This document shows, one piece after another, positions 2,787-28,699 of a stretch of DNA of 64,000 nt. Within the stretch, counting starts at the first letter, position 1. Each line of letters opens with the position of its first letter. The position numbers and the translations under genes are program-made. This stretch comes from Bacteroidia bacterium. Lineage in GTDB: Bacteria > Bacteroidota > Bacteroidia > SpSt-205. The stretch covers positions 47,648 through 111,647 of the forward strand of contig JBCNVK010000005.1 of NCBI GenBank assembly GCA_039630245.1, read 5' to 3'. Below the pieces are notes generated by a model. It searched no databases, was not told the origin of the DNA, and was given only the letters and a program-made list of their open reading frames with translations.

Positions 2787-3725
2787 TTACTCCACCACCA
2801 CGAGCCGGTCAGCTACACGGCCATACTCGGTCTCTAAGAGGATAGTATAAATCCCCTTAGGTAGACGGAGCGAATAGCGGTGCTCGCCAGCGGCATACAA
2901 GCCCTCGTGGAGGTAAGCTTCACGGCCGTCCATGGTGAAGGCGCGCAGGCTCACGCGGGTAGGCGAGATGAGGATGAACCGAAGCTCCGTCTCACCCCAA
3001 GCCGGATTAGGGGATAAACGCATCTGTACAGAGTGGTTTCCTATATAGCCTGTATAGGTCGGAAGATTGCGGGTGATTTTCACTACGTACCGAAACACGG
3101 TATCTCCATAGGTGCGGTTACCACCCGCATCAGGAGTGTGAAGGGTAGTGGTGTCCTTATTATTCCCATCGCCTGCGAGGGTAGGTATGAAGAATCGTAC
3201 GCGCACGCGCAGGGTGTCAGAGCCTTCTTGATTGGCCGCCTTGATGCAGAGACGGGCGCAACCGAAAGGGGGTGAGCCACCCGCTGTACCCCCAGCACCC
3301 CATTCCGTAGGCGAGGGATTGCGATATACTACAAATCTTGCCGTGTTAGGATTGTTCGGCTCATAGGCCTTGAGGCGGTGCGGTTGGTCAAAGTGGATGG
3401 GGCCAGCCTCAGGGTTATTACTGTTGTAAGCAAAGGGGTTACCGCTGCGGTCCGTCACCCGGTTGGAGTCTAGGCGCATACTATCTACCCAGATGGCATA
3501 ATTAGGAAACACAGTGAAGAGCCCCCTTCTTACAGAGTCTGGAAAGGTGAAATGTACTACGAGCGTAGTGTCGGAACCAGGGCGAAGCCGCAGGGTGTCC
3601 GGATTGAAGCCGAACGGCAACCTAATCAAATTTCGATCAGGCGTGCACTGGGCGCACGTATTTTGGCTGTAAGCCTGAGCCCCTAAAAGGGCCACCGAAA
3701 ATAGAGTAACGCTAGCGTAACGCAT
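2787..3725 (-). CDS. Secreted protein with an N-terminal signal peptide and a T9SS C-terminal sorting domain
   Basis: Signal peptide MRYASVTLFSVALLGAQAYSQ. C-terminal LSPNPAWGETELRF...GIYTILLETEYGRVADRLVVVE is a T9SS CTD. The start is placed at the internal ATG (3725) because TATATTTG lies 7 nt upstream on the minus strand. Confidence 0.6.
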   Translation of the reverse strand: MRYASVTLFSVALLGAQAYSQNTCAQCTPDRNLIRLPFGFNPDTLRLRPGSDTTLVVHFTFPDSVRRGLFTVFPNYAIWVDSMRLDSNRVTDRSGNPFAYNSNNPEAGPIHFDQPHRLKAYEPNNPNTARFVVYRNPSPTEWGAGGTAGGSPPFGCARLCIKAANQEGSDTLRVRVRFFIPTLAGDGNNKDTTTLHTPDAGGNRTYGDTVFRYVVKITRNLPTYTGYIGNHSVQMRLSPNPAWGETELRFILISPTRVSLRAFTMDGREAYLHEGLYAAGEHRYSLRLPKGIYTILLETEYGRVADRLVVVE

Positions 3726-3732
3726 ACCGCTC

Positions 3733-3740
3733 CAAATATA
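3733..3740 (-). promoter_or_regulatory. -7 box TATATTTG on the minus strand, 7 nt upstream of the ATG of gene 2787-3725
   Basis: Matches TAnnTTTG; it sits in a divergent AT-rich intergenic region. Confidence 0.4.
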
Positions 3741-3766
3741 CGGCTTTTTCCAAAAATCCAAATTCC

Positions 3767-3774
3767 TACCTTTG
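3767..3774 (+). promoter_or_regulatory. -7 box TACCTTTG, 4 nt upstream of the GTG start of the OlsF-like gene
   Basis: Matches TAnnTTTG. It is one half of a divergent promoter pair with 3733-3740. Confidence 0.4.
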
Positions 3775-3778
3775 GCTG

Positions 3779-5611
3779 GTGAGCCGCTATCGCCGCCCGC
3801 TCGTGGAGCTAGATAAGCTGCTAGCCACGCCTTGGCAGCGGGTCATCTATCGCCTCTTGGGACCGTGGATAGAAAAGGCTTTAGGCATAGAACGGCTCAA
3901 TCGTTTCTACGAACTCTGCGAAACCTCGGGCAAATCCCCCGCAGAGTTTGCCGATCGGGTACTGGAGCTTATAGGCGTCCAATACGTCTTGCCCTCTGAA
4001 GCTGAATTGGAAGCCCTGCGGGCCTACCAAGGCCCTCTGGTGGTAGTATGCAATCATCCCTTTGGCGGCATAGAAGCCATTTTTCTCGTGCGTTTTCTCA
4101 GTGAAATCCGGCCAGATTTTCGGATCATCGCAAATTTCTTCTTGGAGCGGGTGGAGGAGGTGCGGGAAATGCTTTTGCTGGTAGATCCCTTTGGGGGCGA
4201 AGGGGCCCAGCAGTTCAATCGCCAGCCCTTGCGTCAAGCCTTAGCCTACCTCAAAGGGGGCAATCTTTTAGGAATTTTTCCCTCAGGAGAGGTGGCCAGC
4301 TGGAACTGGCGCACGGGACGAGTGAGGGAGCCCGAATGGCATCCATTGGTAGGGCGCCTCATTTGGCAAAGCCAAGCCGCTGTCCTGCCACTCTATTTTC
4401 ACGGTACGAATAGCCTATTTTTTCATTTAGCCGGGCTTATCCATGCGCGTTTTAGGACGGGACTCCTTATCCGCGAGTTTGTATCGCCTTCTGCGCGCAA
4501 GGTGCATTATCGGATGGGCCGCCTACACCTATTTGAACGCCTGCGCGAGCTGGGATCCCCGGAGCGCATTACCAGCTATTTGCGGGCTAAAACCTACTTA
4601 GTGGGCGAAGCCGTAGAAAACCGCTGGCGTCGCTTGCGGCTTTATCGCTGGCGCCAGCGCTTCCTGCCTACCTATCCCCCTCAACCCATCAAACCTCCCC
4701 TAGGACCTGAGGTTGTGGACCGATTGCTGCGTAGCTTGCCAACTTCCCAAAAGCTTCTAGAACAAGGGGAATGGGCCGTATATTACTTTCGCGGCAGTCA
4801 GCAGCCTGAGCTCCTTTATGAATTGGGACGGCTGCGGGAAACTACCTTCCGCGCCGCAGGAGAGGGTACAGGTAAAGCCTTAGACACGGATGCCTACGAT
4901 ACGTGGTATGACCACCTTGTGCTCTACCACACCAGCGAAAAGGAAATCGTGGGTGCCTATCGGATTGGTCGTTGCGACGAGATTCTTCAGACTCGCGGCC
5001 TGCGCGGCCTTTACCTTTACTCCCTCTTTCACCTGCGGCGCGCGCTTTTCCGTGAGGTTCAGCCAGCGTTAGAGTTGGGCCGCGCTTTTATCACAGAGAA
5101 GTACCAGCGCACCTATGCGCCGCTCTATCTATTGTGGCGGGGGATTGGCCAGTATATCCTCCAAAACCCGCGCTACCGCTTCCTCATAGGGCCTGTGAGC
5201 CTGAGTAGGCATTTTTCGGACCTGTCTAAGGCTTTTCTAGTGGCCTTTCTGGAGGACCATTATAAGGCTGAAGCCCTAATGGCAGAGGTTCGGCCGCGCA
5301 ACCCCTATGTCGTTTCTCCTGACCATCGGAATTACTACTATACAGTAGCGGTTCAGAGCCTCCGAGATGTGGAAGACCTCATAGAGGAATTAGAAGGTAG
5401 TCCCATTCGGCTGCCTGCGCTAATCCGGCACTATTTGCGCATGGGCGCGCGCATTTTGGCCTTCAATATAGACCGCTCCTTTAGCGACGCCTTAGATATA
5501 CTTATGCTTACAGACCTTCTGGAAGTAGAGCCAGAACTTATGCGTAAGTACATGGGTGAGGAGGGGTACGAGCAATACAAGGCGTTTCATAAGCGAGAAG
5601 CTATCGTCTGA
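3779..5611 (+). CDS. Bifunctional aminolipid acyltransferase, OlsF-like. It has an N-terminal PlsC/LPLAT O-acyltransferase domain and a C-terminal OlsB-type hemolysin-like N-acyltransferase domain.
   Basis: The N-terminal half carries VVVCNHPFGGIEA and IFPSGEVAS, which are acyltransferase motif-like. The C-terminal half resembles OlsB/GNAT-type N-acyltransferases. At 610 aa the size matches OlsF. Confidence 0.5.
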   Translation: MSRYRRPLVELDKLLATPWQRVIYRLLGPWIEKALGIERLNRFYELCETSGKSPAEFADRVLELIGVQYVLPSEAELEALRAYQGPLVVVCNHPFGGIEAIFLVRFLSEIRPDFRIIANFFLERVEEVREMLLLVDPFGGEGAQQFNRQPLRQALAYLKGGNLLGIFPSGEVASWNWRTGRVREPEWHPLVGRLIWQSQAAVLPLYFHGTNSLFFHLAGLIHARFRTGLLIREFVSPSARKVHYRMGRLHLFERLRELGSPERITSYLRAKTYLVGEAVENRWRRLRLYRWRQRFLPTYPPQPIKPPLGPEVVDRLLRSLPTSQKLLEQGEWAVYYFRGSQQPELLYELGRLRETTFRAAGEGTGKALDTDAYDTWYDHLVLYHTSEKEIVGAYRIGRCDEILQTRGLRGLYLYSLFHLRRALFREVQPALELGRAFITEKYQRTYAPLYLLWRGIGQYILQNPRYRFLIGPVSLSRHFSDLSKAFLVAFLEDHYKAEALMAEVRPRNPYVVSPDHRNYYYTVAVQSLRDVEDLIEELEGSPIRLPALIRHYLRMGARILAFNIDRSFSDALDILMLTDLLEVEPELMRKYMGEEGYEQYKAFHKREAIV

Positions 5612-5618
5612 GAGCTCC

Positions 5619-5626
5619 TAATTTTG
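5619..5626 (+). promoter_or_regulatory. -7 box TAATTTTG, 4 nt upstream of the ATG of the enoyl-CoA hydratase gene (internal promoter in the cluster)
   Basis: Matches TAnnTTTG, in the 19-nt gap after the olsF-like stop. Confidence 0.4.
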
Positions 5627-5630
5627 CGGT

Positions 5631-6407
5631 ATGTATGAGACCCTTTTGTATGAGGTGCGGGAGGCGGTAGCCTACCTCACCCTCAATCGGCCCGACCGCT
5701 ACAATGCCTTTAACGAGAAAATGAGTGCGGAATTTCTGGAGGCGCTTAGAAAAGTAAGCAAAGACAAGGCCGTGCGCGTGTTGGTAGTAACAGGAGCGGG
5801 CAAGGCCTTCTGCTCGGGTCAAGACCTCAAAGAAGTAGCTGGGGTGGAGCGGTCGCTGGGGGATTCGGTAGCGCGTCGCTACAATCCCATGGTACGAGCC
5901 CTTCATGAGCTAGAAAAACCCGTAATAGCGAGCGTCAATGGGGTGGCTGCGGGTGCTGGCGTAGGCTTAGCCCTTGCCTGCGATTATGTAATAGCCGCCA
6001 AGTCGGCTACTTTCGTACTGGCCTTCGTGAATGTAGGCCTTTCGCTAGATACGGCTACCTCCTTTCACTTAGTGCGTACGGTAGGCCTCAAGCGGGCGTT
6101 TGCTTTGGCCACCTTAGGAGAGCCGCTGGGTGCAGAGCAGGCAGTACAATGGGGCCTTATCAACGAAGTAGTAGAAGAGGCTAAACTGGCTGAAGCTACT
6201 CACGCGCTGGCACTCAAACTGGCGGCGAAAGCACCCCGAGCCTTAGCCCTTATCAAAAAACTTCTTCTGCGCGCCGTTGAGCGCAGCTACGAAGAGGCGC
6301 TTCAGTACGAGCTCTACTATCAAGAAATCGCCGGACGGACGCAGGATTACAAAGAGGGCGTTCAGGCCTTCGTGGAGAAGCGGAAGCCGGTATTCCGAGG
6401 CGAATGA
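5631..6407 (+). CDS. Enoyl-CoA hydratase/isomerase (crotonase superfamily)
   Basis: N-terminal LTLNRPDRYNAFN, and the oxyanion-hole region GAGKAFCSGQDL. 258 aa. Confidence 0.8.
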   Translation: MYETLLYEVREAVAYLTLNRPDRYNAFNEKMSAEFLEALRKVSKDKAVRVLVVTGAGKAFCSGQDLKEVAGVERSLGDSVARRYNPMVRALHELEKPVIASVNGVAAGAGVGLALACDYVIAAKSATFVLAFVNVGLSLDTATSFHLVRTVGLKRAFALATLGEPLGAEQAVQWGLINEVVEEAKLAEATHALALKLAAKAPRALALIKKLLLRAVERSYEEALQYELYYQEIAGRTQDYKEGVQAFVEKRKPVFRGE

Positions 6408-7216
6408 CGGCGCCAGCCGACTGGCGGGAGTGGTTTTCGGGCGCAGCGGGTCGGCGCGCCTGCATCGTCGCCGGCCCATGCGTCGTAGAGTCCTATGCGA
6501 TCTGTGCGCAGGTGGCCGAGCGGCTCCGACAAGCCTGCGAGGCGGAAAACTTCTTCTATATCTTCAAGGCCTCTTACCGTAAGGCTAATCGTACGCGCCT
6601 CTCGGCCTTTCAGGGAATTGGGGATGCGGCAGCTCTGGAAATCCTCGGCCAGGTACGCCACGACTTTGGCCTACCTGTCTTGACCGATGTCCATGAAACG
6701 AGCGAAGTTCCAGCCGCAGCCGCCGTAGCGGATGTGCTCCAAATCCCCGCTTTTTTAGCCCGCCAGACAGCCCTCTTATTAGCCGCAGGCCGTACGGGTA
6801 AAGTGGTGAATATAAAAAAGGGCCAATTTATGAGTGCCCAAGCCCTTCTCTTTGCAGCGGAAAAAGTAAGCTCCACGGGCAATAGACGTATATTTCTCAC
6901 GGAGCGGGGAAATTTTTTTGGCTATGAAGACTTAGTGGTGGATTTTCGGAATATTCCGCGGCTGCGGGCGGGTGGGTATCCGGTGCTTATGGATGCGACG
7001 CATGCCGTCCAGCGCCCTAATTCCGCTGCGGGCTATACCAAGGGGGCCCGCGAATACGTGGCCCTTTACGCGCGGCTGGGCGTAGTAGCGGGTGCCGATG
7101 GGGTCTTTATGGAGGTCCATCCTAACCCAGCAGCTTCACCCAGCGATGCCGAGACCATGCTTTCGCTGGAAGAGGCGGAAGCCCTCTTGAGAGAGCTTAG
7201 TCGGCTTTACCCCTGA
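6404..7216 (+). CDS. kdsA: 3-deoxy-8-phosphooctulonate (KDO-8-P) synthase
   Basis: Strong similarity to KdsA blocks: FKASYRKANRT, VLQIPAFLARQTALL, DATHAVQ. Its start overlaps the upstream stop by 4 nt. Confidence 0.8.
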   Translation: MTAPADWREWFSGAAGRRACIVAGPCVVESYAICAQVAERLRQACEAENFFYIFKASYRKANRTRLSAFQGIGDAAALEILGQVRHDFGLPVLTDVHETSEVPAAAAVADVLQIPAFLARQTALLLAAGRTGKVVNIKKGQFMSAQALLFAAEKVSSTGNRRIFLTERGNFFGYEDLVVDFRNIPRLRAGGYPVLMDATHAVQRPNSAAGYTKGAREYVALYARLGVVAGADGVFMEVHPNPAASPSDAETMLSLEEAEALLRELSRLYP

Positions 7217-8265
7217 TGGAGGGGAAGTTCTGCCTAAGGGCTTTCTGGAGCCTCCCGGAAGCGGAGAACTTAGCCCAGGCGGCGCGGAACTGGAAAGTGC
7301 TGGATAATCGGCCAGTTTATGCGCTGCCTAGAGGCGGCACAACCTGGGAGCTGCTCTCTGCCTTGGCAGACCGCCACGCGGAGGAGATAAAAGCGCTTGC
7401 ACCGCAGGCCGTAGTTATTGGCTCGGCGCGAGGGGAAATGACTATGCTTTTCCAGGCCTACGACGCTTGGCGCTCTACCAAAGCCCTAACGCCTACCCTT
7501 TCTCCTGAAACTTCCTTGGGTACGCTGGCGAGCCGCTTAGCCCGTCGCTTGGGCATTCAAGGGCCAGCATGGACAGTAAGCCAAACCTGCCTTAGCGGCC
7601 TCGTAGCCTTATACCAAGCAGCCCTTCTGATTAGAGCAGGCGCGGCCCAGCGGGTACTTTTTGGGGCGGTAGAAGCTCCTCTCCACCCCTTCTTCGTAGA
7701 AGCTATGGCGGCTTTGCGGATTTATAGCCGTCAGAACGATTTTCCTTTTGTGCGGCCGCTAAGTGGGGAGAATACCTTTGCTTTAGGGGAGGCGGTGGCG
7801 TTAGGTGTTCTGACGGAAGGGACAGACGGCCCTTTTAGAGTAGAAGCCATTCACTTGACTACGGCCGCGCCGAGGGAAGGCCTAGCCTTTCCCGCTGTGG
7901 ATGCGGAAGCTTTAGCGGCTTTCTTGAGGGAGTTTAGTGCCCCGCCCGACATGGTTTTTCTGCATGCCCCTGGGACGCGGCAGGGCGATGCGGCCGAATG
8001 GCAGGCCATTCGCTTAGCTTGGGGTGATGTACCCGCCTGCGCGCCCAAAGCCTTCTTCGGGCACAGCTTGGGGGCCTCCCCGCTGGTGAGCTTAGGCTTA
8101 GCTTGCGCTTTTCTCCGTCAGCGGCGTTGGGTCACAAGCCTTCCTTCTTCTAAAAGCCCTGCGCAGTGGCAGCGAGCCGTAGTCTTGGCTTTAGGCTATG
8201 GCGGGGTAATGGGTGCCATAGAGCTTAGCTATGCGCCTTCAGGAACGGATTCGGCGCACGCTTGA
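7216..8265 (+). CDS. Beta-ketoacyl-ACP synthase I/II-like condensing enzyme. It is internally shortened in the N-terminal half (349 aa against about 410 for FabF) but retains the Cys-His-His triad.
   Basis: TVSQTCLSGL (active-site Cys), LHAPGTRQGD (His) and FFGHSLGASPLVS (His) align to the FabF/FabB catalytic motifs. TGATG couples its start to the kdsA stop. Confidence 0.6.
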   Translation: MEGKFCLRAFWSLPEAENLAQAARNWKVLDNRPVYALPRGGTTWELLSALADRHAEEIKALAPQAVVIGSARGEMTMLFQAYDAWRSTKALTPTLSPETSLGTLASRLARRLGIQGPAWTVSQTCLSGLVALYQAALLIRAGAAQRVLFGAVEAPLHPFFVEAMAALRIYSRQNDFPFVRPLSGENTFALGEAVALGVLTEGTDGPFRVEAIHLTTAAPREGLAFPAVDAEALAAFLREFSAPPDMVFLHAPGTRQGDAAEWQAIRLAWGDVPACAPKAFFGHSLGASPLVSLGLACAFLRQRRWVTSLPSSKSPAQWQRAVVLALGYGGVMGAIELSYAPSGTDSAHA

Positions 8266-9289
8266 TAAGCTACCCCCTAGGGGCTTCTGGCCCTTACCTT
8301 CAGAGGCCCCTGACTTCAGTACAAATGACTACCTCGGCCTCAATCGGGACGGCGTCATTCGGCAGATTTTACAGGCGGTACCCGCGGAGTGGCTGCGTGG
8401 GGGCAGCGCCTCTCGCTACTTAGGTGGCGAAGCTTCGCCCTTTGCCGCCTTAGAAGCTCTCGTCTGCGCCTTGTGGGGACCCCAAGAAGAGGCCCTTTTG
8501 TACCCAAGCGGGCTAGTGGCTAACCTTACCTTCTGGAGCGTGGTACCCGAGCGAGGAGATACAATAGTTTATGATAGGCGCGTCCATGCGTCTATCCGAC
8601 AGGGGATACGACTTAGTGGCGCAAAAAGCTGGGGCTTTCCCCATCAGAATTGGGAGGAGGCTGAAAGGCTTATACGCCGGGCTTCGGGGGAGGTTTTTGT
8701 AGCGGTGGAGTCGCTCTACTCTATGGAAGGTACGAGCCCTTCGGTTGAAGCGCTGAGCTATTTTCAGGCGCATTACGGCTGCCATATCGTGGTAGATGAA
8801 GCCCATACCACGCTTATTCTTCCACAAGGCGCTAGCTGGTCTCAGAGGGTGGGCCTTAGGCCGCTGGCGCGTCTTTTTACTTTTGGTAAGGCGGTTGGCC
8901 TAGTGGGGGCCGTGTGGGTAGGGCCTTGGTGGCTTATAGAGCTTTTGCGGCGGAAAGGATGGGGCGGGATCTATACTACAGCGCTTCCGCCTCTTTTGGC
9001 TTGGGCGGTGGGGGAGGTCCTGCGCCGTTCAGCCGAATGGGAAAGCCGCCGCCAGCGCCTATGGCAGCTGATAGGCTGGACGCGTCAGTACCTCGCTGCG
9101 TGCGGCTATACTTATCAGGGGCTTGAGGGGCCTATTGCGCTGCTTTCGGACGTACATCCACTGCCCCTCAAGAAGCTCCATCCGCCTACCGTACCACAGC
9201 CAGCCTATCGCCTAAGTCTCCATGCCTTCAATACCGAGGCCGAAATCCAAGCCCTTTTCACTTCAGCCAATCCTACCCCTTCTGAGTAG
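8231..9289 (+). CDS. bioF: 8-amino-7-oxononanoate synthase-like alpha-oxoamine synthase (PLP-dependent), short form
   Basis: N-terminal MRLQERIRRTLD is similar to E. coli BioF MSWQEKINAALD. It also has DFSTNDYLGL, DEAHTT and the PLP-lysine motif FTFGKAVG. At 352 aa it is short for a BioF. It overlaps the KAS-like gene by 35 nt. Confidence 0.5.
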   Translation: MRLQERIRRTLDKLPPRGFWPLPSEAPDFSTNDYLGLNRDGVIRQILQAVPAEWLRGGSASRYLGGEASPFAALEALVCALWGPQEEALLYPSGLVANLTFWSVVPERGDTIVYDRRVHASIRQGIRLSGAKSWGFPHQNWEEAERLIRRASGEVFVAVESLYSMEGTSPSVEALSYFQAHYGCHIVVDEAHTTLILPQGASWSQRVGLRPLARLFTFGKAVGLVGAVWVGPWWLIELLRRKGWGGIYTTALPPLLAWAVGEVLRRSAEWESRRQRLWQLIGWTRQYLAACGYTYQGLEGPIALLSDVHPLPLKKLHPPTVPQPAYRLSLHAFNTEAEIQALFTSANPTPSE

Positions 9290-9451
9290 GATTTTGCTGC
9301 TCTCTTAGTAACGGGCTAAAGATGACCTGATAGCGGCACGGTAGAATTCTGCCTAGCTAAAAATCCGCCAGCAGAGCTAGGGATACACCTTGTCTATAAG
9401 CCCTTATCCCTTTCTGGTCAGCAAGGGGCGTAGAAAGGTGCGCATTTGGCT

Positions 9452-9459
9452 TACCTTTG
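9452..9459 (+). promoter_or_regulatory. -7 box TACCTTTG, 4 nt upstream of the GTG (9464) of lepB
   Basis: Matches TAnnTTTG. Confidence 0.35.
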
Positions 9460-9463
9460 TGCG

Positions 9464-10567
9464 GTGGCGGAAAAGGCGCCTTCGGCACGCCGGCGCTGGT
9501 GGCGTGAGCTGATTATAGCTCTGGCGGTCATTCTCTTCCTGCGCACCTTCGTAGTGGAGGCCTTTCTTATTCCCACTAGCTCTATGGAGAAAACCCTTTT
9601 GGCCTGGGATCTCGTCTTTGTGAGCAAGCTTCATTATGGGCCGCGGCTGCCAATGGTGCCCTTAGCTATTCCGTTTATTCACAATCGTATCCCTTTCACG
9701 GGGATTCCCTCGTATTTGGATTGGATTGTTTTTCCCTATGTGCGGTTGCCTGGCTTCAAGCCTATTCAGCGAGGCGACATTATAGTCTTCAACTATCCCG
9801 CCGATGATGTAATGCCCAATAGTCCCGAGCTGGGTCCCGTACAAATCCCGAGCCTCAAGGAAAACTACGTCAAGCGGTGTGTAGGCATTCCCGGCGATAC
9901 GATAGAAATACAAGCTGGGGAACTGTATGTAAATGGCCGACTGGCCTATGCGCCGCGCTATCTACAGGAGCGTTATCGGGCGGTTACGCAGGGCGAACCC
10001 CTTACCTATCGGGTGCTGCGGCCGTTTGGGTTCCGCCCGCCAGGAAGTTCCAACCTGAATTGGAGTATGCGGGATGCCCGTACCTACCTGCTGGATATGA
10101 CGCGCGAGACAGCGCGCGCATTTCAGCAAAACTTTGCCTCCATCTTAGATACCTTTCACAGAGAAATAGACTCGGCCGGGCGCTTTATGCCGCTTATTTA
10201 CCCTCAGGATACGAACTTTCGGTGGAATTTAGACTACTGGGGGCCCTTCTATCTACCCCGGCGAGGGGATAAAATTCGGCTCAACTATTATACCTTAGCT
10301 CTTTACCGACGGCTCATAGAGGGGTATGAAGGGCATAATGTGCAGGTAGTAGGCGGGCAGATATACATAGACGGGGAGCCCCGAACGGAATATACCTTTC
10401 AGCAGAATTACTACTTTGCGATGGGCGATAATCGCTATAACTCGCTAGATGGGCGCTTTTGGGGGCCCGTGCCAGAGGATCACATTATAGGGAAGCCGAT
10501 TTTCGTCCTACTCTCTATTGAGGATTGGAAGCCGCGATGGGACCGGTTTCTGCGAGCCGTACAATAG
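9464..10567 (+). CDS. lepB: Signal peptidase I
   Basis: IPTSSMEKTLL (catalytic Ser box) and GDNRYNSLDGRFWGPV (box E), with an N-terminal TM anchor. The start is chosen at the in-frame GTG behind the -7 box; the ORF could begin at 9446. Confidence 0.75.
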   Translation: MAEKAPSARRRWWRELIIALAVILFLRTFVVEAFLIPTSSMEKTLLAWDLVFVSKLHYGPRLPMVPLAIPFIHNRIPFTGIPSYLDWIVFPYVRLPGFKPIQRGDIIVFNYPADDVMPNSPELGPVQIPSLKENYVKRCVGIPGDTIEIQAGELYVNGRLAYAPRYLQERYRAVTQGEPLTYRVLRPFGFRPPGSSNLNWSMRDARTYLLDMTRETARAFQQNFASILDTFHREIDSAGRFMPLIYPQDTNFRWNLDYWGPFYLPRRGDKIRLNYYTLALYRRLIEGYEGHNVQVVGGQIYIDGEPRTEYTFQQNYYFAMGDNRYNSLDGRFWGPVPEDHIIGKPIFVLLSIEDWKPRWDRFLRAVQ

Positions 10568-12804
10568 CCCAGAAAGCGGGGCTTTCTGAAGCGGAGTATG
10601 AACGAATCTTGGGCCTTCTGGGCCGAGAGCCCACAGAGGTGGAAGTCTGGATTTTTTCCGCTCTTTGGAGCGAGCACTGCAGCTATAAGAGTTCTTTACT
10701 TCATCTGCGGCGTTTGCCGCGCCGTGGGCCGCGTACCCTCCGCCTGGCGGGAGAGGAAAACGCTGGTCTGCTGGATATTGGAGAGGGGTGGGCCGTAGCC
10801 TTCAAGGTAGAGTCGCATAACCATCCCAGTGCGGTTGCCCCCTACCAAGGCGCAGCCACAGGCGTAGGTGGTATCCATAGGGATATACTGGCTGTGGGGG
10901 CCCGGCCTATTGCGGCTTTGGACTCGCTTCACTTTGGCTATCCTATAGATGCTAGTACGCGGGCGCTGCTGGAGGGGGTAGTACGGGGTATAGCGGATTA
11001 TGGGAATGCCCTAGGTGTGCCTACTATCGGCGGAGAGACCTACTTTGCGCCTGCGTATAGAGGTAAGCCTATCGTAAATGTGCTAAGTGTGGGGCTTGTG
11101 CCGAAGGATAGGGTGGTAAGTGCGCGCGCCCAAGGCGTAGGTAATCGAGTCCTATACCTCGGTGCGCCTACGGGGCCGGATGGGGTAGGGGGCGCCGCTT
11201 TCGCCTCCGAAGTGCTGGAGAGCGGAGACAAATCCTCACTGGCTGTGATTCAAGTGGGTAATCCATTTCGGGAAAAGCTTTTGCTGGAGGCCTTAGGAGA
11301 AATGGTGGCGGAAGGCCTGATTGTAGGGATGCAGGACATGGGCGCCGCTGGGCTGGCTAGCTCTACCGCCGAAACCGCCGCACGCGGAGGAGTAGGTATG
11401 CGCATCTGGCTAGACAAAGTGCCGCTCCGAGGGGGCGTACATACCCCTCAGGAAATCCTCCTTTCAGAGTCCCAGGAGCGCATGCTCCTTATAGCGACGC
11501 CCGAAGCTGTACCTGCCCTCCAGCGTATCGCTCAGAAGTGGGAGCTCCTTTTGGTAGATATTGGCGAAATCACGGAGGGCGAAGAGGTAGAGTACTGGTG
11601 GCAGGGCAGTAAGGTAGCTGCTTTGCCCCCTAAGCTCCTTTTAGCCGGCGAAGGTGCGCCCCTCTATGACTGGCCTAAAGAGCCTCCCGCCTACCTGCAG
11701 GAAATCGCCGCTTTCTCTCCCGCTAAGGTGCCCGATATCGGGTCGGTAGGCGAGTTAGAGGGTGCCTTAGAGCGGCTTCTTGCCCATCCAGATTTGGGAA
11801 GTAAGGCGTGGATTTATCGGCAATATGATAGGATGGTGGGGGGCTGTACCATAGGTAGTGCCAGCGAACTACCCGCTGCTGCACCGCTAATACGCCTTCC
11901 CTATACCGATCGGGCACTGGCGGTCACGCTGGACGGTAATCCTTGGTGGGTGGAGGCTTCCCCCCGAGTCGGTACAGCCTTAGCCGTAGCGGAGGCAGCT
12001 CGTCAGGTAGCTTGTACAGGGGCCGTGCCTTTAGGCGTTACCAACTGCCTAAACTTCGGCAGCCCTCAAAATCCCTCCATCTACTGGCAGTTTGTAGAAG
12101 CGGTGGAGGGCTTGCGGGAGGCCTGTGAAGTCTTAGAACTGCCCGTTACGGGTGGTAATGTAAGCTTTTATAATGAGGATACAGAAGGCGCTATTCTGCC
12201 GACGCCAGTCATAGGCGTAGTGGGGCTTTTAGAGGAGGCCCTCCAGCGGTGGGTGCCTATGGCCTTGCCAAAGTGTGCGGCTCGCCTGTATCTCATCGGT
12301 GGCCCAGCGAGCCTAGCGGAGCCCTCCTTAGGGGCTAGCCATTACCTTCGGGAAGTGCGGGGAATAAGGTATGCCCCACCGCCGAGGCTAGACCTAACTG
12401 CGGAGCGACGCCTTATACGGCTGCTTCCGGCCTTAGCGGCTCAAGGTCTACTTTTAGCCGCTCAGGATGTGTCGGATGGCGGCCTACTTCTGAGCCTTCT
12501 AGAAATGGCTCTAGCGGGGTCAAGCGGCTTTGTAGCGATTCAACCGCAGGGTGTGCGTACCGATGCTTTCTGGTTTGGGGAGGATGGCGGACGGGTGGTA
12601 GTGGCCGTAGCTTCTACTCAGGCCCAAGCCTTGGAACGCCAAGTGGCGGAGGCTGGCCTTTCGGCGCTTGCCTTAGGCGAAGTAGTGCCGGGAAGCGGGT
12701 ATGGCATTCTCTATACGCCTTGTGGTATAGGGCGGCTTGACCTTCTACGCCTGCGAGCTAAGTACATGGGCTGTTTAGAGACCCATTTGGCGCTGGCTAC
12801 TTAG
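10525..12804 (+). CDS. purL: Phosphoribosylformylglycinamidine synthase subunit PurL
   Basis: FSALWSEHCSYKSS, AIRE-like domains and tandem PurM-like repeats. 759 aa. Confidence 0.85.
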   Translation: MEAAMGPVSASRTIAQKAGLSEAEYERILGLLGREPTEVEVWIFSALWSEHCSYKSSLLHLRRLPRRGPRTLRLAGEENAGLLDIGEGWAVAFKVESHNHPSAVAPYQGAATGVGGIHRDILAVGARPIAALDSLHFGYPIDASTRALLEGVVRGIADYGNALGVPTIGGETYFAPAYRGKPIVNVLSVGLVPKDRVVSARAQGVGNRVLYLGAPTGPDGVGGAAFASEVLESGDKSSLAVIQVGNPFREKLLLEALGEMVAEGLIVGMQDMGAAGLASSTAETAARGGVGMRIWLDKVPLRGGVHTPQEILLSESQERMLLIATPEAVPALQRIAQKWELLLVDIGEITEGEEVEYWWQGSKVAALPPKLLLAGEGAPLYDWPKEPPAYLQEIAAFSPAKVPDIGSVGELEGALERLLAHPDLGSKAWIYRQYDRMVGGCTIGSASELPAAAPLIRLPYTDRALAVTLDGNPWWVEASPRVGTALAVAEAARQVACTGAVPLGVTNCLNFGSPQNPSIYWQFVEAVEGLREACEVLELPVTGGNVSFYNEDTEGAILPTPVIGVVGLLEEALQRWVPMALPKCAARLYLIGGPASLAEPSLGASHYLREVRGIRYAPPPRLDLTAERRLIRLLPALAAQGLLLAAQDVSDGGLLLSLLEMALAGSSGFVAIQPQGVRTDAFWFGEDGGRVVVAVASTQAQALERQVAEAGLSALALGEVVPGSGYGILYTPCGIGRLDLLRLRAKYMGCLETHLALAT

Positions 12805-16137: not shown

Positions 16138-17337
16138 ATGGCTTTTGGGCTTATCCAGTGGGCTGAGGCGCAGCTGTCTGAGATTCGGCGTAGCGGCCTG
16201 TACAAAACAGAACGGGTTATTGATTCACCACAAGGGGTGGAGATCACTCTAGCGGATGGCCGGCGGGTCCTTAATTTTTGTGCTAATAACTATTTGGGTT
16301 TAGCTTCGCACCCGCGTGTGGTAGCGGCGGCCCATCGCGCACTGGAGCGGTGGGGCTACGGCATGGCTTCGGTTCGCTTCATTTGTGGCACGCAGACGCC
16401 CCATAAAGCTCTAGAGCGCGCCATCGCCGACTTCCTGCACTGTGAAGACGCCATTCTGTATGCAGCTTGCTTTGACGCCAATGGAGGTGTCTTTGAGCCC
16501 TTTTTCGGACCGGAGGATGCCATTTTTTCGGACGAGCTCAATCACGCCAGCCTGATAGATGGTATCCGCCTTACGAAAGCGCGGCGGCTGATTTATCGCC
16601 ACTGTGATGTAGAGGATTTAGAGCGCAAGATCGTAGAAGCAGGGCCTGTACGCTTTCGGGCTATTGTTACGGACGGGGTTTTCTCCATGGATGGAGATTA
16701 TGCCCCTTTGCCCGAACTTATGCGACTGGCCGAGCAGTATGATGCGCTACTTATCGTGGATGACTCGCATGCGACGGGCTTCGTAGGGCCGACGGGCCGA
16801 GGGACGCCCGAACGGTTCGGGATTTTAGGTGCTCCGCGTCTCCTAATTACGGGTACGCTGGGCAAAGCGCTAGGGGGAGCCATGGGCGGCTTCGTGGCCG
16901 GGGCAGCGCCGCTTATAGACCTATTGCGGCAGCGCTCACGCCCCTACCTTTTCTCCAATTCCCTCTCACCTGTAGTCGCCGCTACAGCGGCCGAGATTTT
17001 CTCATGGCTTGCCGATACTACGGAACTGCGCGACCGACTTGAGCAAAACACCCGACAGTTCCGGGAAGGCCTTAGCCGAGCGGGCTTTCAGATAAAACCC
17101 GGCGATCATCCGATTGTGCCGATTATGCTCTATGATGCGGTTCTGACTCAGGAAATGGCTGAAGCCTTGTTGGAGGAAGGCATTTATGTGGTGGGCTTTT
17201 CTTACCCAGTGGTGCCGCGTGGTCAGGCGCGCATTCGGGTACAGCTTAGCGCCGCCCATACGTCTGAGCACATTGCCCAAGCGCTTGCGGCCTTTGAGAA
17301 GGTAGGCGCGCGCTTAGGAGTTCTGGCCAAGTCCTAA
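16138..17337 (+). CDS. kbl: Glycine C-acetyltransferase (2-amino-3-ketobutyrate CoA ligase)
   Basis: FCANNYLGL, FICGTQ, DDSHATGF and the GTLGKALGG PLP-Lys motif. 399 aa. Confidence 0.75.
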   Translation: MAFGLIQWAEAQLSEIRRSGLYKTERVIDSPQGVEITLADGRRVLNFCANNYLGLASHPRVVAAAHRALERWGYGMASVRFICGTQTPHKALERAIADFLHCEDAILYAACFDANGGVFEPFFGPEDAIFSDELNHASLIDGIRLTKARRLIYRHCDVEDLERKIVEAGPVRFRAIVTDGVFSMDGDYAPLPELMRLAEQYDALLIVDDSHATGFVGPTGRGTPERFGILGAPRLLITGTLGKALGGAMGGFVAGAAPLIDLLRQRSRPYLFSNSLSPVVAATAAEIFSWLADTTELRDRLEQNTRQFREGLSRAGFQIKPGDHPIVPIMLYDAVLTQEMAEALLEEGIYVVGFSYPVVPRGQARIRVQLSAAHTSEHIAQALAAFEKVGARLGVLAKS

Positions 17338-26500: not shown

Positions 26501-26548
26501 TGGCAGATAGAGGTGCCCTTGGATCTGCGTTGGGCCATACCCTGGTAG
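23516..26548 (+). CDS. Large secreted M1-family zinc metallopeptidase
   Basis: HEVGHNWF...(18 aa)...E matches HEXXH-X18-E. It has a signal peptide. About 1010 aa. Confidence 0.65.
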   Translation: MRKEWACSLLSLGVWGWAQRPYFQQRVEYQIKVQLDAQQHLLRGHIRFVYRNNSPDTLPGLYIHLWPNAYSRRGTALDKQQRARGESRFFFARKNERGYIDSLDFRVDGVPVRPLPAWRGPKPAEGHPRRLLKSAPDVVWLPFPTPLPPAGHLTVETPFRVKLPPIFSRLGHDGSQYAITQWYPKPAVYDARGWHPLPYLDQGEFYSEWGRYEVEITVPQNFVVAASGVLQTPEEWRWLRQRELETRQWIAQQPDTPTAEEKVRRFLIVSFRLSGGKATLPLNAPSWARDDTPAPAYKTLRFTQDSIHDFAWFADPRYALLSDSTAIAPGKWVRCVAVFRLEDYRSWQYVPSYIAEALQSLSAWVGPYPYAHATAVEGPLAAGGGMEYPMITIISPIRDTSQLRRVVVHEVGHNWFQGLLGSNERLHPWQDEGINSYYERRIIEADPIFSGGGEVIRPIGPGRYTSIPAEMLFYHHLNADVAPGASSYHFGSISYGLGAYNKTAYLLRSLVLSVGSERWDAAMQTYFQRWAFRHPYPEDWAESLESQGVPGQAMLRLLRTDREPDLRLRFRRLSDSLYQVRVEEPTRLLPRPFRVEALAIERPGWIAERYTLPLDSTLDLSLPPSAHLFVVNPQLLIYERRVGNNFFYRRRFLPGWRRLKWGVVAPLTRFYLYQYPLGLLPALGYNYRDGLMAGALLYGGLFPKRTLEFHLLPLYSFLRQELRGSAGLTLRAFPADGRLHLIEMRLRTSNFAGLWRVKAAVEGFLRRSPEALIGWRQVVRLRSYHLAFQSPEKLSYNWENGGRPAYVALDWEGRREEAITTLFVMGSVGHDLRGGFRTEGELRAFHRFRHWHIWARLYGGWVSADRADYLLFRPAGYDPFGEYVLLDRFREGKGVVRRQFPENQGGWRTPADTLRTSALLAVNLELPLPYWHSIVLRTDAGYLPQMRRTYWGISLGLPVYRFRDRLLVGGYFPLLGTTFEGERPKTLRAVVERFVWQIEVPLDLRWAIPW

Positions 26549-26583
26549 GGCCGTGTGCCGCTACTTTGCTTATCTTAACTCAC

Positions 26584-27894: not shown

Positions 27895-28699
27895 GGTACT
27901 GCTTACTGGGGCGGCTGGGGGCATCGGGGTAGCTACGGCCCGTCGCCTCTGGGAAAAGGGCTTCCAGCTCGTACTTACCGACCTGAGCCTAAGTGCCCTT
28001 GAGCGGGCCTTTCCTGAGGTGCCCTCGGGTTCAAGTCTGGAACCCCTGGATGTACAAAGTCTTGAAAATTGGGGGGAAATAGCTGAACGCCACTCTGATA
28101 CCGAAATCCTTATTCAGCTGGCGGGGGTGATGCGAGTGGGAAAGTTCCTAGAGCAGCCCATAGAGCTTTGGCATCTTCAGCAAGGGGTTAATCTCACAGG
28201 TCTGGTGTATGGGGCGTGGGTATTTGGGCGGCGGTTTGCGGAGCGGGGGCATGGACACCTCATCCATGTGGCTTCGCTGGCCGGGATAGCTCCGGTGCCC
28301 GGAATTGCCGCCTACACCGCTACTAAATTTGGCGTGCGGGGGTTTAGCTTAGCGCTGGATTTGGAACTGCGGCCGCAGGGCGTGCCTGTAACGGTTATCT
28401 GCCCAGGTCCTGTAGCTACGCCGCTTATCTGGAATGAACTCCCCAAACCAGAAAGCGTTTATACCCTTGCGGCGGGAGGGCTTCTGGAGCCGGAAGCAGT
28501 GGCCCGAGCAATTGAGCGAGCTATTTGGGATCGTCCGCCCGAGATTGCTTTACCTGCCCATAAAGCCCGGGCGGCTCGGCTGGTAGGGGCTTTTCCCCGC
28601 CTACTTCCCTGGGCTGTGCGGTTCTTTACGAAAGGTGCGGCCCAGCGCCGCGCTAAATATCTCCAGACCTATCCTACGCCGTCCCAGTCCACGACCTAA
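27887..28699 (+). CDS. SDR-family oxidoreductase
   Basis: TGAAGGIGVATARRL Rossmann motif and a YxxxK-type region. It overlaps the FMO stop by 8 nt. Confidence 0.65.
   Translation: MPKVLLTGAAGGIGVATARRLWEKGFQLVLTDLSLSALERAFPEVPSGSSLEPLDVQSLENWGEIAERHSDTEILIQLAGVMRVGKFLEQPIELWHLQQGVNLTGLVYGAWVFGRRFAERGHGHLIHVASLAGIAPVPGIAAYTATKFGVRGFSLALDLELRPQGVPVTVICPGPVATPLIWNELPKPESVYTLAAGGLLEPEAVARAIERAIWDRPPEIALPAHKARAARLVGAFPRLLPWAVRFFTKGAAQRRAKYLQTYPTPSQSTT

Follow-up and report, generated by a model that had tools for sequence, protein, structure and literature searches.

KAS I/II-type enzymes in the biotin operons of Bacteroidota suggest an undescribed route to the pimelate precursor of biotin

Relatives of a KAS I/II-type condensing enzyme encoded in the window (the whole 64-kb stretch of DNA analyzed) are found in the bio operons of many Bacteroidota, which suggests an undescribed route to biotin's pimelate precursor. 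In the window itself, the gene for the KAS overlaps that for a BioF-type α-oxoamine synthase (Table 1), and the reading that we favor, with slightly better than even confidence, is that the KAS acts as a dedicated condensing enzyme, turning an ω-carboxy primer into 3-oxopimeloyl-ACP and thereby feeding BioF. If this is true, a fatty-acid-type KAS I/II fills a BioZ-like slot in biotin synthesis.

Table 1. Positions of the genes and key codons in the window
Feature	Position	Strand	Description
OlsF-like bifunctional acyltransferase	3779-5611	+	NCBIfam OlsF 346.6 bits (cutoff 620); Pfam Acyltransf_2 and Acetyltransf_5
Crotonase-family enoyl-CoA hydratase/isomerase	5631-6407	+	Pfam and NCBIfam
kdsA	6404-7216	+	Bona fide; KdsA NF003543 322 bits, above the cutoff of 242
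KAS gene	7216-8265	+	349 aa, ATG; KAS I/II-fold condensing enzyme (predicted), shortened member of an unnamed bio-operon-linked family
KAS key codons	Arg72 7429-7431; Cys125 7588-7590; Arg168 7717-7719; His250 7963-7965; Thr254 7975-7977; Lys278 8047-8049; His283 8062-8064; Tyr328 8197-8199
KAS/bioF overlap	8231-8265	+	35 nt, KAS stop region with bioF start
bioF-type gene	8231-9289	+	352 aa, ATG; α-oxoamine synthase, AONS/BioF type
BioF key codons	Arg17 8279-8281; His119 8585-8587; Glu160 8708-8710; Ser164 8720-8722; Asp189 8795-8797; His192 8804-8806; Thr217 8879-8881; PLP-Lys220 8888-8890; Arg327 9209-9211
Kbl	16138-17337		Bona fide, separate from the bioF-type gene

Catalytic residues and length of the KAS and BioF-type proteins

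Pfam finds ketoacyl-synt PF00109 (7e-15; residues 62-202, corresponding to positions 115-249 of the HMM) and Ketoacyl-synt_C PF02801 (4e-7) in the KAS. The three motifs that the first-pass annotation had taken to mark the catalytic residues (TCLSGL, HAPGT, and GHSLGAS) are all present in the translation, as QTCLSGL (Cys125), LHAPGT (His250), and FGHSLGAS (His283), and in HMMER alignments these residues match the catalytic Cys and two His of solved FabF/KS structures. Together with Lys278 and an aromatic gate, G-Y/F-G-G (Tyr328; Phe in most relatives), they correspond to FabF C163, H303, H340, and K335 and its GFGG gate. Alignments of 21, 41, and 62 sequences all keep Cys125, His250, Lys278, and His283 without exception, and the gate is likewise invariant in 62 family members. 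Arg168 aligns with FabF Arg206, at a distance of 43 from the Cys in both proteins; in FabF this residue contacts Asp56 of ACP (PMC9006962). By these alignments, the 349-residue protein is a KAS I/II-type enzyme with its catalytic set intact. The AlphaFold2 model is a confident KAS fold (pLDDT 92.9, pTM 0.92), for which Foldseek returns KasA, FabF, and FabB (TMq 0.78-0.83, 16-22% identity). The HMM searches, proposed like the structure prediction in the first-pass annotation, gave a divided answer: the Pfam KAS domains are present, but the NCBIfam cutoffs for FabF, FabB, and bioF are missed. All NCBIfam KAS models score far under cutoff (e.g., TIGR03150 fabF, 52.8 vs 493.75; PRK07967 FabB, 34.8 vs 630; and the top model, PRK05952 (NF004618), 69.5 bits vs 455).

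Two other class assignments were tried and rejected. As a KAS III, the protein would differ from what is seen in its domains, with neither PF08545 nor PF08541 (ACP_syn_III) found and PRK09352 reaching just 16.4 bits, and in its triad, which is Cys-His-His; the distinction that had been drawn from the KAS III-like BioZ is thus upheld. In chain-length factors (KS-β), another residue, typically Gln, stands in place of the active-site Cys, and a second KS gene is the partner. Here Cys125 is kept and invariant, no second KS gene is adjacent, and Cys-His-His, Lys, and the aromatic gate are retained family-wide, in agreement with the earlier view that this is not an inactivated chain-length factor.

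The KAS is 63 residues shorter than E. coli FabF (349 vs 412). With FabF residue numbering taken from the literature, the segments measure 72 vs 108 residues from the N terminus to the back-gate residue, 53 vs 55 from the gate to the Cys, 125 vs 140 from the Cys to the first His, 33 vs 37 between the two His, and 66 vs 72 from the second His to the end; 36 of the missing residues lie ahead of the FabF-Ile108 position and ~27 elsewhere. The shortening noted in the first-pass annotation therefore stands, but not its placement of about 60 residues in the N-terminal half: 38 of 63 are lost before the Cys, and the others at dispersed sites. The bulk of the N-terminal loss is peculiar to the thermophilic window clade, because the bio-operon relatives (386-390 residues) keep an almost FabF-like spacing (104/53/134/35/60). 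Position 7216 is the earliest possible KAS start, the upstream DNA being occupied by full-length kdsA, and orthologs in 14 MAGs are of equal length (~344-366 residues). The shortening is real and spread out, not an artifact, and a frameshift, once considered as its cause, did not hold: the ORF is unbroken by any frameshift or stop. That the KAS is decaying or non-catalytic, and kept as a structural partner of BioF, is extremely improbable. It does fall 63 residues under FabF length and lacks ~30 N-terminal residues present in its bio-operon relatives, but its catalytic residues persist down to 33% identity within the clade, more than 14 MAGs have a protein of this length, and its predicted fold is compact and confident. 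The shortened enzyme is apparently, as predicted from sequence, catalytically competent.

The 352-residue protein is, by its residues, an AONS (BioF)-type enzyme retaining the full catalytic set: R17, H119, E160, S164, D189, H192, T217, K220, and R327 (E. coli R21, H133, E175, S179, D204, H207, T233, K236, and R361) are invariant among 36 sequences, including the BioFs of Hymenobacter and Myroides. It scores 192.3 bits on the NCBIfam bioF model TIGR00858, under the cutoff of 426.45, as does the Cellulophaga bio-operon BioF (344.8); the runner-up family is SPT at 108 bits, 84 bits behind. Its best PDB sequence matches are AONS, and its AlphaFold2 model (pLDDT 94.2) has E. coli AONS as its top Foldseek match (1dje; TMq 0.88, rmsd 2.6). 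The N terminus is short, as had been claimed, by ~15 residues instead of about 25 (the Phe of DFSTNDYLGL is Phe29 here and Phe44 in E. coli), and this is normal for the group: other Bacteroidota bio-operon BioFs have a similarly short N terminus, and short BioFs of 351-354 residues lie next to bioB in other Bacteroidota. A ~14-residue gap in the C-terminal domain makes up the rest. The closest relatives outside the window clade are Hymenobacter bio-operon BioFs (1e-51).

Linkage to biotin genes and the local gene block

We tallied linkage in 61 genomes with a KAS relative. The KAS adjoins bioF in 34 genomes, lies inside a bioF-(u126)-bioD-bioA-KAS(-bioB) cluster in 16, and has bioA and bioB beside it in 2, for a total of 52/61 bio-linked; the remaining 9 have no bio gene within the DNA examined around the KAS. 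The taxa include Flavobacteriaceae, Hymenobacter (the complete genome of Hymenobacter sp. DG25B has the order bioF-bioD-bioA-KAS), Lewinellaceae, and Bdellovibrionota. CP010054.1 is an example of a KAS-bearing complete genome. The window KAS matches the Cellulophaga bio-operon KAS at 9e-32 and solved FabFs at ~1e-12, and in a neighbor-joining tree the window clade is sister to all bio-operon KASs, with APE-type, cyanobacterial, and FabF-type outgroups apart. For both the KAS and the BioF of the window, the nearest relatives outside the clade are the bio-operon versions. NCBIfam has no model for the bio-operon KAS family, whose names in the source records are generic, and a literature search found no paper describing it.

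The literature consulted lists only four pimeloyl routes, BioC-BioH, BioI-BioW, BioZ, and BioE (PMC12704756). A search of the window and 68 loci (849 kb) found no BioC-like ORF at E<=0.01; the hydrolases there all fall short of the BioH cutoffs, and the KAS-bearing loci examined gave no BioE-like ORF either. A Myroides bio operon has a BioE ortholog overlapping bioF and no KAS; its ExxH motifs at 53 and 155 match the EmBioE ligands (PMC12704756). These loci without BioC, BioH, or BioE, together with the 52/61 linkage, give strong comparative backing to the earlier suggestion that a KAS I/II partner of BioF would be a different way of supplying the pimeloyl moiety. The BioC search covered loci, and BioC could be encoded elsewhere in the genomes, a point that we counted against the favored reading. 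It is nonetheless unlikely that the KAS works within a BioC-type pathway, with BioC and an esterase encoded elsewhere and the KAS elongating malonyl- and glutaryl-ACP methyl esters, which host FabH/FabF, branched-chain-tuned in Bacteroidota, would handle poorly. Such a role would explain the bio-operon linkage equally well, acyl-ACP primers are natural for a KAS I/II, a PF00756 esterase lies immediately upstream of Hymenobacter DG25B bioF, generic α/β hydrolases lie near some loci, and bioC has been reported in the bio cluster of the related Balneolaceae (PMC9909488). Yet bioC normally sits in bio operons and is missing from all 849 kb, the hydrolases are not conserved across loci, and an invariant Arg in the pocket (see below) is hard to square with a neutral methyl-ester substrate.

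The 35-nt overlap of the KAS and bioF genes, already noted in the first-pass annotation, is consistent with translational coupling; the ortholog pairs in loci L001-L014 overlap or abut, and the BioF start M-R/S-L-x-x-R is kept in clade orthologs. Upstream, the crotonase and kdsA genes are joined by a 4-nt overlap and kdsA and the KAS gene by a 1-nt overlap (TGATG), and this four-gene block (ECH-KdsA-KAS-BioF) is kept in L002-L014, L088, and L089, with varying flanks. The OlsF-like gene, which is separated from the crotonase gene by 19 nt and also lies upstream in locus L013, probably heads the same transcription unit. With kdsA, crotonase, and OlsF-like genes, the neighborhood of the pair is lipid/LPS-flavored, not purely biotin. 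We found no bioA, bioD, or bioB in the 64-kb window, nor in the 6-10 kb flanking the pair in 16 further loci of the clade; beside the nearest relatives, these genes are present. A pair set apart in this way is common, because Lewinellaceae and Bdellovibrionota also keep a lone bioF-KAS pair, isolated from bioA, bioD, and bioB.

This setting leaves a small but appreciable chance that in the thermophilic clade the pair never served biotin, or no longer does. The KAS would then deliver a β-ketoacyl- or short acyl-ACP, which the AONS-like enzyme would join to an amino acid to give another α-amino ketone (e.g., a signal or a precursor of lipid head groups). The lack of bioA, bioD, and bioB around the pair in 17 loci of the clade fits such a role, as do the olsF-like, crotonase, and kdsA neighbors, the clade member P0029, where ECH-KdsA-KAS is followed by yceD-rpmF-plsX-fabH and bioF is absent, and the much greater divergence and shortness of both proteins relative to their bio-operon counterparts. 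Pairs of a KS and an α-oxoamine synthase are known in secondary metabolism, prodigiosin PigJ/PigH being one, and NCBIfam searches gave weak PigJ matches. Against this stand the retention of all AONS catalytic and substrate-anchoring residues, the lead of AONS over SPT, KBL, ALAS, CqsA, and CFAT by both sequence and structure, the bio-operon versions as nearest relatives of both genes, the separate Kbl in the window, and the lone pairs of Lewinellaceae and Bdellovibrionota.

Arg72 and the proposed condensation

In FabF, the I108-F202 back gate sits at ~C7-C8 of the bound chain, and I108F restricts chain length (PMC9006962). In the KAS, Arg72 aligns with Ile108 of FabF GSGIGG and Met164 with Phe202; the hydrophobic FabF-type gate, which admits C4-C16, appears, as inferred from sequence only, not to be kept. 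Arg occupies the Ile108 position in 62/62 family members and in 95/96 single-domain representatives among the top profile matches. The family signature is G-[SCT]-[SA]-R-G, a first-His motif H-x-P-G-T-x-x-G-D, and a Cys-to-Arg spacing of 53, which the window KAS fits with GSARG and HAPGTRQGD. Arg alone is no proof of a biotin role, because cyanobacterial PRK05952-like KASs carry it too, with bio genes absent from the one context examined. Arg72 is a candidate partner for an ω-carboxylate.

In the reading that we favor, the KAS-BioF pair would form a two-enzyme module for entry into biotin ring assembly, the KAS being an active, ACP-dependent, decarboxylating KAS I/II enzyme specialized for the pimeloyl moiety. 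A short ω-carboxy acyl primer, most likely glutaryl-ACP or glutaryl-CoA (with a malonyl primer possible in an earlier round), would be loaded onto Cys125, and Arg72 would pair with the free ω-carboxylate and also shut the pocket to longer chains. Malonyl-ACP would be decarboxylated by His250, His283, and Lys278, and condensation would give 3-oxopimeloyl-ACP, which housekeeping FabG/FabZ/FabI would convert to pimeloyl-ACP; the AONS would then join pimeloyl-ACP and L-alanine to give KAPA (8-amino-7-oxononanoate). From these proposed steps, the role of the KAS would be analogous to that of BioZ with another KAS class, and no BioC/BioH methyl-ester disguise would be needed.

A housekeeping role, in which the KAS replaces FabF/FabB, adjacency to bioF means no more than that biotin and fatty-acid synthesis are metabolically linked, and the upstream crotonase might serve unsaturated fatty acid synthesis as a FabM-like isomerase, is very unlikely. 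The FabF/FabB-like fold and triad, a sub-threshold NCBIfam FabM match of the crotonase (204 bits, cutoff 400), and the plsX-fabH context of P0029 speak for it. However, the invariant Arg in place of Ile108 should block long acyl chains, FabF models score about a tenth of their cutoffs, and the crotonase link is limited to the window clade whereas the bioF/bio-operon link crosses phyla.

For the dedicated condensing enzyme we counted the catalytic residues, the bio linkage, the bio-operon nearest relatives, the lack of a local alternative provider, the invariant Arg72, and the intact AONS set. On this reading, the window clade would make biotin. Against it we counted the lack of bioA, bioD, and bioB near the clade pair, the lipid/LPS-type neighbors, P0029 without bioF, the missed curated cutoffs for FabF and BioF, the occurrence of the Arg in cyanobacteria, and the use of serines by BioZ.

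Comparison with known systems

BioZ is a KAS III-type 3-ketoacyl-ACP synthase of α-proteobacterial bio operons (Hu & Cronan 2020, PMC7645780). Like BioZ, the KAS is a putative dedicated condensing enzyme encoded with bio genes in loci without BioC/BioH, and the reaction proposed for it is the same, an ω-carboxy C5 primer and malonyl-ACP giving 3-oxopimeloyl-ACP, to be finished by FAS II. BioZ, however, is FabH-like, with Cys-His-Asn and ACP_syn_III domains, and takes glutaryl-CoA, whereas the KAS has Cys-His-His plus Lys and ketoacyl-synt N/C domains. BioZ grips the glutaryl carboxylate with two serines, Ser84/Ser287, not with an Arg (PMC12625853); the candidate in the KAS is Arg72. Linkage of the BioZ type holds for the family at locus level (52/61), whereas the window clade has just bioF beside the KAS. 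The BioC-BioH(G/K/J/V) and BioE routes occupy the same slot, that of a pimeloyl-ACP provider beside bioF (PMC12704756), and Myroides BioE overlaps bioF as the window KAS does, but the families are unrelated, and the chemistry is methylation with esterolysis in the first route and oxidative cleavage of long acyl chains in the second, as opposed to Claisen condensation.

With FabF/FabB, the KAS shares the thiolase-type KAS fold (TMq ~0.8), Cys-His-His, and, compared with FabF, Lys335, the Phe400-type gate, Thr307, and the ACP-contacting Arg206. It differs in its low identity (16-22%), equivalog scores about a tenth of the cutoffs, its length, linkage to bioF instead of acpP/fabG, and two motifs, FabF GSGIGG becoming GSARG and HGTSTPAGD becoming HAPGTRQGD (Thr305 to Pro). 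The best profile-to-PDB matches are the compact (~400 residues) ApeO (PDB: 6qsp; 2e-55) and 7f28_B (6e-50); unlike the KAS, these short stand-alone KSs of aryl-polyene/flexirubin-type clusters have G-T-S-T-S-G at the Arg site, have no bio-gene linkage, and make polyenes together with a chain-length factor. The cyanobacterial PRK05952 (NF004618) enzymes, the best NCBIfam match, have G-S-S-R at the Ile108 position but are longer (369-421 residues), form a separate neighbor-joining clade, and have no bio genes in the single context examined. E. coli BioF (1dje/1bs0) shares the catalytic set with the window BioF and is its top structural match; at 25-26% identity, the window protein is 32 residues shorter, ~15 at the N terminus and ~14 in the C-terminal domain.

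The KAS-BioF gene pair and its neighborhood

The gene for the 349-residue KAS I/II-fold protein (window KAS) and that for the 352-residue BioF-like protein (window BioF) lie in a tightly packed run of plus-strand genes in which the crotonase-family gene (ECH) and kdsA overlap by 4 nt, kdsA and KAS by 1 nt (TGATG), and KAS and BioF by 35 nt, the last as read in the first-pass annotation. The window has a G+C content of ∼55%, uncultivated thermophilic "Bacteroidia bacterium" MAGs encode identical or near-identical proteins, and scans for sigma-70 promoters and terminators over positions 3500-10800 were uninformative. The C-terminal half of the OlsF-like protein also resembles the glycine-lipid protein GlsB, and the product is predicted to be a divergent aminolipid synthase of uncertain amino-acid specificity. 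Divergently oriented to it is a gene for a protein with no Pfam match whose C-terminal ∼80 residues look like a T9SS (Por) sorting domain; elsewhere in the window, a flavin-containing monooxygenase-like gene overlapping a short-chain dehydrogenase gene looks like a small oxidative module.

Features of the window and of compared loci (L numbers, loci from other genomes; P numbers, individual homologous proteins)
Feature	Position	Strand	Remarks
324-aa protein	2787-3761	-	17 nt from olsF-like start
OlsF-like bifunctional acyltransferase	3779-5611	+	346 bits vs OlsF cutoff 620
Crotonase-family enoyl-CoA hydratase/isomerase (ECH)	5631-6407	+	
KdsA, bona fide KDO-8-phosphate synthase	6404-7216	+	NF003543 322 bits, cutoff 242
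KAS-like ORF	7216-8265	+	349 aa
BioF-like ORF	8231-9289	+	352 aa
lepB, then purL			157-nt gap after BioF-like ORF
Kbl	16138-17337		596 bits vs cutoff 493
Monooxygenase-like and dehydrogenase genes	26500-28699		FMO-like/Lys_Orn_oxgnase, 464 aa
PRK05952-like cyanobacterial KAS	L081:1928-3184		P0036-P0042, 369-421 aa
ECH-KdsA-KAS-YceD-L32-PlsX-FabH	L082:6446-11700; L083		P0029, 337 aa
PF00756 "putative esterase," Hymenobacter sp. DG25B	L084:6984-7865		293 aa, directly upstream of bioF
BioE ortholog, Myroides marinus	L085:8396-9004		4-nt overlap with bioF start; bioE-bioF-bioD-bioA operon
bioB, short BioF, predicted lipoprotein; other Bacteroidota	L086:7897-10056; L087:7900-10065		BioF 351-354 aa
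Acyl-CoA dehydrogenase; type III CoA-transferase (CaiB family)	L089:14715-15902; L089:19089-20159 (also L090)		window-clade metagenome contig
Cupin_8/JmjC-like gene, Flavobacteriaceae	L015:8122-8985; L016:10356-11213; L017, L021, L022, L023, L040, L045, L047, L048, L050		∼285 aa; PF13621, 7e-31
Small gene between bioF and bioD, Flavobacteriaceae	L016:3431-3811; homologs L015, L017, L021, L023, L035, L040, L045, L047, L048		∼126-145 aa

Pfam finds both ketoacyl-synthase domains in the window KAS, and its scores on curated NCBIfam KAS models all lie at about a tenth of the cutoff (best, cyanobacterial PRK05952, 69.5 versus 455; fabF, 52.8 versus 493.75), with matches to solved FabF, KasA, and actinorhodin KS structures of only 1e-13 to 1e-11. 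The AlphaFold2 model, built from a 41-sequence alignment, is confident (pLDDT 92.9, pTM 0.92) and is placed by Foldseek among KAS I/II and PKS KS structures (TMq ∼0.8, 16%-22% identity). Cys125, His250, Lys278, His283, and the G-Y/F-G-G gate align to FabF C163, H303, K335, H340, and F400 and do not vary in any of three alignments (21, 41, and 62 sequences), and Arg168 has the spacing of FabF Arg206, which contacts ACP (PMC9006962). These features exclude a KAS III and make catalytic competence very probable; that the protein is a non-catalytic relic strikes us as extremely improbable. The retained Cys rules out a chain-length factor, in agreement with the first-pass annotation, and Pfam and NCBIfam rule out membership of KAS III/BioZ.

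The shortening is genuine. Position 7216 is the first start, kdsA fills the DNA upstream, and orthologs have the same length, which disposes of a frameshift or mis-called start; together with the invariant residues, this bears out the initial description of a shortened enzyme that keeps Cys-His-His. The loss had been described as ∼60 residues of the N-terminal half, whereas segment lengths show it spread along the protein with no single internal deletion. Compared with the bio-operon KASs of Cellulophaga and Hymenobacter, these lengths indicate that a loss of ∼30 N-terminal residues is peculiar to the thermophilic clade. Short-type KASs have only about six 50%-identity representatives among 1.8 billion proteins.

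Segment lengths (residues) in the window KAS and its relatives
Segment	Window KAS	E. coli FabF	Cellulophaga / Hymenobacter
N-terminus to back-gate position	72	108	104 / 100
Gate to Cys	53	55	53 / 53
Cys to first His	125	140	134 / 138
First His to second His	33	37	35 / 35
Second His to end	66	72	60 / 64

The window BioF scores 192 bits on the TIGR00858 bioF model (cutoff 426), 84 bits above any other alpha-oxoamine synthase family, and its best PDB sequence matches are AONS enzymes. E. coli AONS (1dje; TMq 0.88, rmsd 2.6 Å) gives the best superposition for its AlphaFold2 model (pLDDT 94.2), with R17, H119, E160, S164, D189, H192, T217, K220 (the PLP lysine), and R327 equivalent to E. coli R21, H133, E175, S179, D204, H207, T233, K236, and R361; this set is invariant in 36 sequences that include Hymenobacter and Myroides BioF. 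About 15 residues, rather than the ∼25 first estimated, are missing ahead of the DFSTNDYLGL block, as are ∼14 residues of the C-terminal domain, and the short N-terminus is common to other Bacteroidota BioFs. The second alpha-oxoamine synthase of the window, considered as the real BioF, proved to be a bona fide Kbl, leaving the ORF next to KAS as the only bioF candidate in the window.

Association of the KAS family with biotin genes

A family-alignment scan with one genome per species gave 61 loci with clear relatives of the window KAS, whose neighbors were annotated by phmmer, Pfam, and NCBIfam. KAS lies immediately upstream of bioF in 15 loci (the window clade and one other), immediately downstream of it in 19 (Lewinellaceae, other Bacteroidota, and Bdellovibrionota), and inside a bioF-(u126)-bioD-bioA-KAS(-bioB) cluster in 16, from Flavobacteriaceae (Cellulophaga, Zeaxanthinibacter, Mesonia, Aquimarina, and Robiginitalea) and Cytophagia (in Negadavirga, in the order bioB-bioF-bioDA-KAS); two loci show only bioA-KAS-bioB, and nine no bio gene in the DNA examined around KAS. 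The complete genome of Hymenobacter sp. DG25B carries bioF-bioD-bioA-KAS with an 8-nt overlap. It is very unlikely that the window KAS is a housekeeping elongation enzyme.

In a neighbor-joining tree (no bootstrap), the window clade is sister to all bio-operon KASs and apart from APE-type, cyanobacterial, and FabF-like outgroups, and the closest relatives of the window BioF outside the clade are Hymenobacter bio-operon BioFs (38%-40% identity). Given these affinities and the bio-operon relatives, the window pair is best regarded as a shortened and divergent version of the bioF-KAS association, which is widespread.

Within the window clade, the pair might instead make another alpha-amino ketone: no bioA, bioD, or bioB lies near it in 17 clade loci, ECH-KdsA-KAS-BioF, the conserved block, follows an OlsF-like gene, and in one clade member ECH-KdsA-KAS sits beside yceD-rpmF-plsX-fabH with no bioF. 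However, in Lewinellaceae and Bdellovibrionota, too, bioF and KAS as a rule form a pair apart from bioA/D/B, and the AONS residue set is intact, and we regard this alternative as unlikely. No gene flanking or downstream of the clade loci (DHFR, PfkB, FAA hydrolase, Lon, TPR proteins, and others) is bio-related. The member lacking bioF downstream, P0029 of the short KAS clade, suggests that the ECH-KdsA-KAS triad is the more deeply conserved unit in the short-KAS lineage.

Two further genes recur in the flavobacterial operons. Downstream of bioB in 11 bio-KAS operons is a Cupin_8/JmjC-like gene whose product has no NCBIfam match and could be another unrecognized operon member. Between bioF and bioD lies a small gene, missing in the window clade, whose product matches DUF2007 weakly and carries CxxC...CxxC in its C-terminal part.

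Other possible sources of the pimeloyl moiety

We searched the window and 68 loci, 849 kb with 5,035 ORFs in all, with E. coli BioC and BioH sequences that had been validated against NCBIfam. There was no BioC-like ORF at E ≤ 0.01, BioH retrieved only three generic alpha/beta hydrolases, none near the BioH cutoffs and none conserved across loci, and clustering of recurrent neighbors of the KAS loci gave no conserved methyltransferase or esterase. We consider it improbable that the KAS acts in a methyl-ester pathway of BioC type, with the remaining genes encoded elsewhere. The PF00756 protein of DG25B falls under every BioH-type cutoff and might or might not have a part in a methyl-ester route.

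The Myroides bio operon has no KAS. There, a 202-residue ORF overlapping bioF has ExxH at 53 and 155, the published iron-ligand positions of EmBioE (PMC12704756), which identifies it as a BioE ortholog, one that no NCBIfam model yet covers. The KAS loci contain no BioE-like ORF, so BioE and KAS fill the same slot beside bioF in different lineages. The u192 protein beside the Cellulophaga KAS was rejected as a BioE-like provider: this membrane protein, whose gene is paired with one for a flotillin, lacks ExxH and is unlike Myroides BioE. Two other Bacteroidota loci with bioB and a short BioF show no KAS, BioE, or BioC nearby; short BioFs thus also occur outside the window, and in some bio loci no pimeloyl provider is yet apparent. 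On the window-clade metagenome contig, the acyl-CoA dehydrogenase and CoA-transferase genes are on the strand opposite to the KAS-BioF pair, at a distance of 4-9 kb. The CaiB family is the one that makes glutaryl-CoA in the BioZ pathway, and the proximity is possibly coincidental because unrelated genes intervene.

A predicted charged acyl pocket and a proposed pimeloyl route

An Arg in a G-[SCT]-[SA]-R-G motif is found in 62/62 family members and in 95 of the 96 single-domain representatives among the top profile matches. It falls at FabF Ile108 of GSGIGG (HMMER alignments; spacing to Cys 53 versus 55), a residue that with Phe202 forms a "back gate" at ∼C7-C8 of the bound acyl chain and whose I108F substitution limits elongation to short chains (PMC9006962). 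With a guanidinium there, long chains should be shut out of the pocket, and from the alignment we infer that this group is in a good position to pair with the free omega-carboxylate of a dicarboxylic primer of C5, perhaps C3; glutaryl-ACP methyl ester is ∼C7 long on Cys (PMC9006962). The first-His motif reads H-A-P-G-T-R-Q-G-D versus H-G-T-S-T-P-A-G-D in FabF, with Thr307 kept and Thr305 replaced by Pro. PRK05952-like cyanobacterial KASs, a separate clade, have G-S-S-R with Arg at the Ile108 position and may be a second uncharacterized family whose acyl pocket is charged; no bio genes lie in the single context that we examined (neighbors Ycf4, PPIase, and Psb28), and literature on slr1332 was uninformative about these relatives.

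On balance, we think it probable, with only moderate confidence, that the window KAS is a dedicated pimeloyl-moiety condensing enzyme feeding the co-translated AONS. An omega-carboxy primer on Cys125 would condense with malonyl-ACP to 3-oxopimeloyl-ACP, FabG/Z/I would turn this into pimeloyl-ACP, and the AONS would make KAPA from it. The first-pass suggestion that a KAS I/II partner of BioF would be a different solution thus gains strong guilt-by-association support across phyla, though it is less secure in the window clade. More tentatively, the family may represent a fifth pimelate route without omega-carboxyl disguise, in which free omega-carboxy primers (malonyl then glutaryl, or glutaryl alone) would be taken on the FAS to 3-oxopimeloyl-ACP and pimeloyl-ACP passed to BioF; much of Flavobacteriia, Cytophagia, Saprospiria, and Bdellovibrionota, and perhaps the Arg-motif cyanobacteria, would rely on it.

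No NCBIfam model (June 2026) captures the window KAS or the Cellulophaga bio-operon KAS. The more than 100 Hymenobacter bio-operon members carry generic or wrong names ([quoted passage not shown] "hypothetical protein"), and many (P0314, P0321, P0323, P0325, P0329, and others) are called "beta-ketoacyl-ACP reductase" in NCBI/UniRef despite their ketosynthase domains, a propagated misannotation. In biotin synthesis, it is the supply of the pimeloyl thioester that varies and is still incompletely known, and each new route has so far been proposed as a drug or engineering target; here, large and ecologically dominant groups (marine Flavobacteriaceae, Hymenobacter, Lewinellaceae, and Bdellovibrionota) have a conserved, as yet unnamed gene of KAS I/II type in their bio operons. 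Were it the pimeloyl provider, a pathway hole would be filled for those groups, their annotations would be corrected, B-vitamin auxotrophy predictions in microbiome and ocean models would be affected, and dicarboxylate engineering would gain a natural case of a FabF-type pocket re-gated by a charged residue.

The BioE paper of December 2025 lists only the BioC-BioH, BioI-BioW, BioZ, and BioE routes (PMC12704756), and we found no open-access full text that describes biotin or pimelate synthesis with a KAS I/II or FabF-like enzyme, although subscription papers may hold an earlier mention. Dedicated condensing enzymes for the pimeloyl moiety are already known; this one would belong to another class of KAS and have a distinctive pocket. 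The window KAS would work likewise to BioZ without belonging to its family: in BioZ, two serines hold the omega-carboxylate (PMC12625853), whereas in the bio-operon KASs the candidate for this role is the motif Arg.
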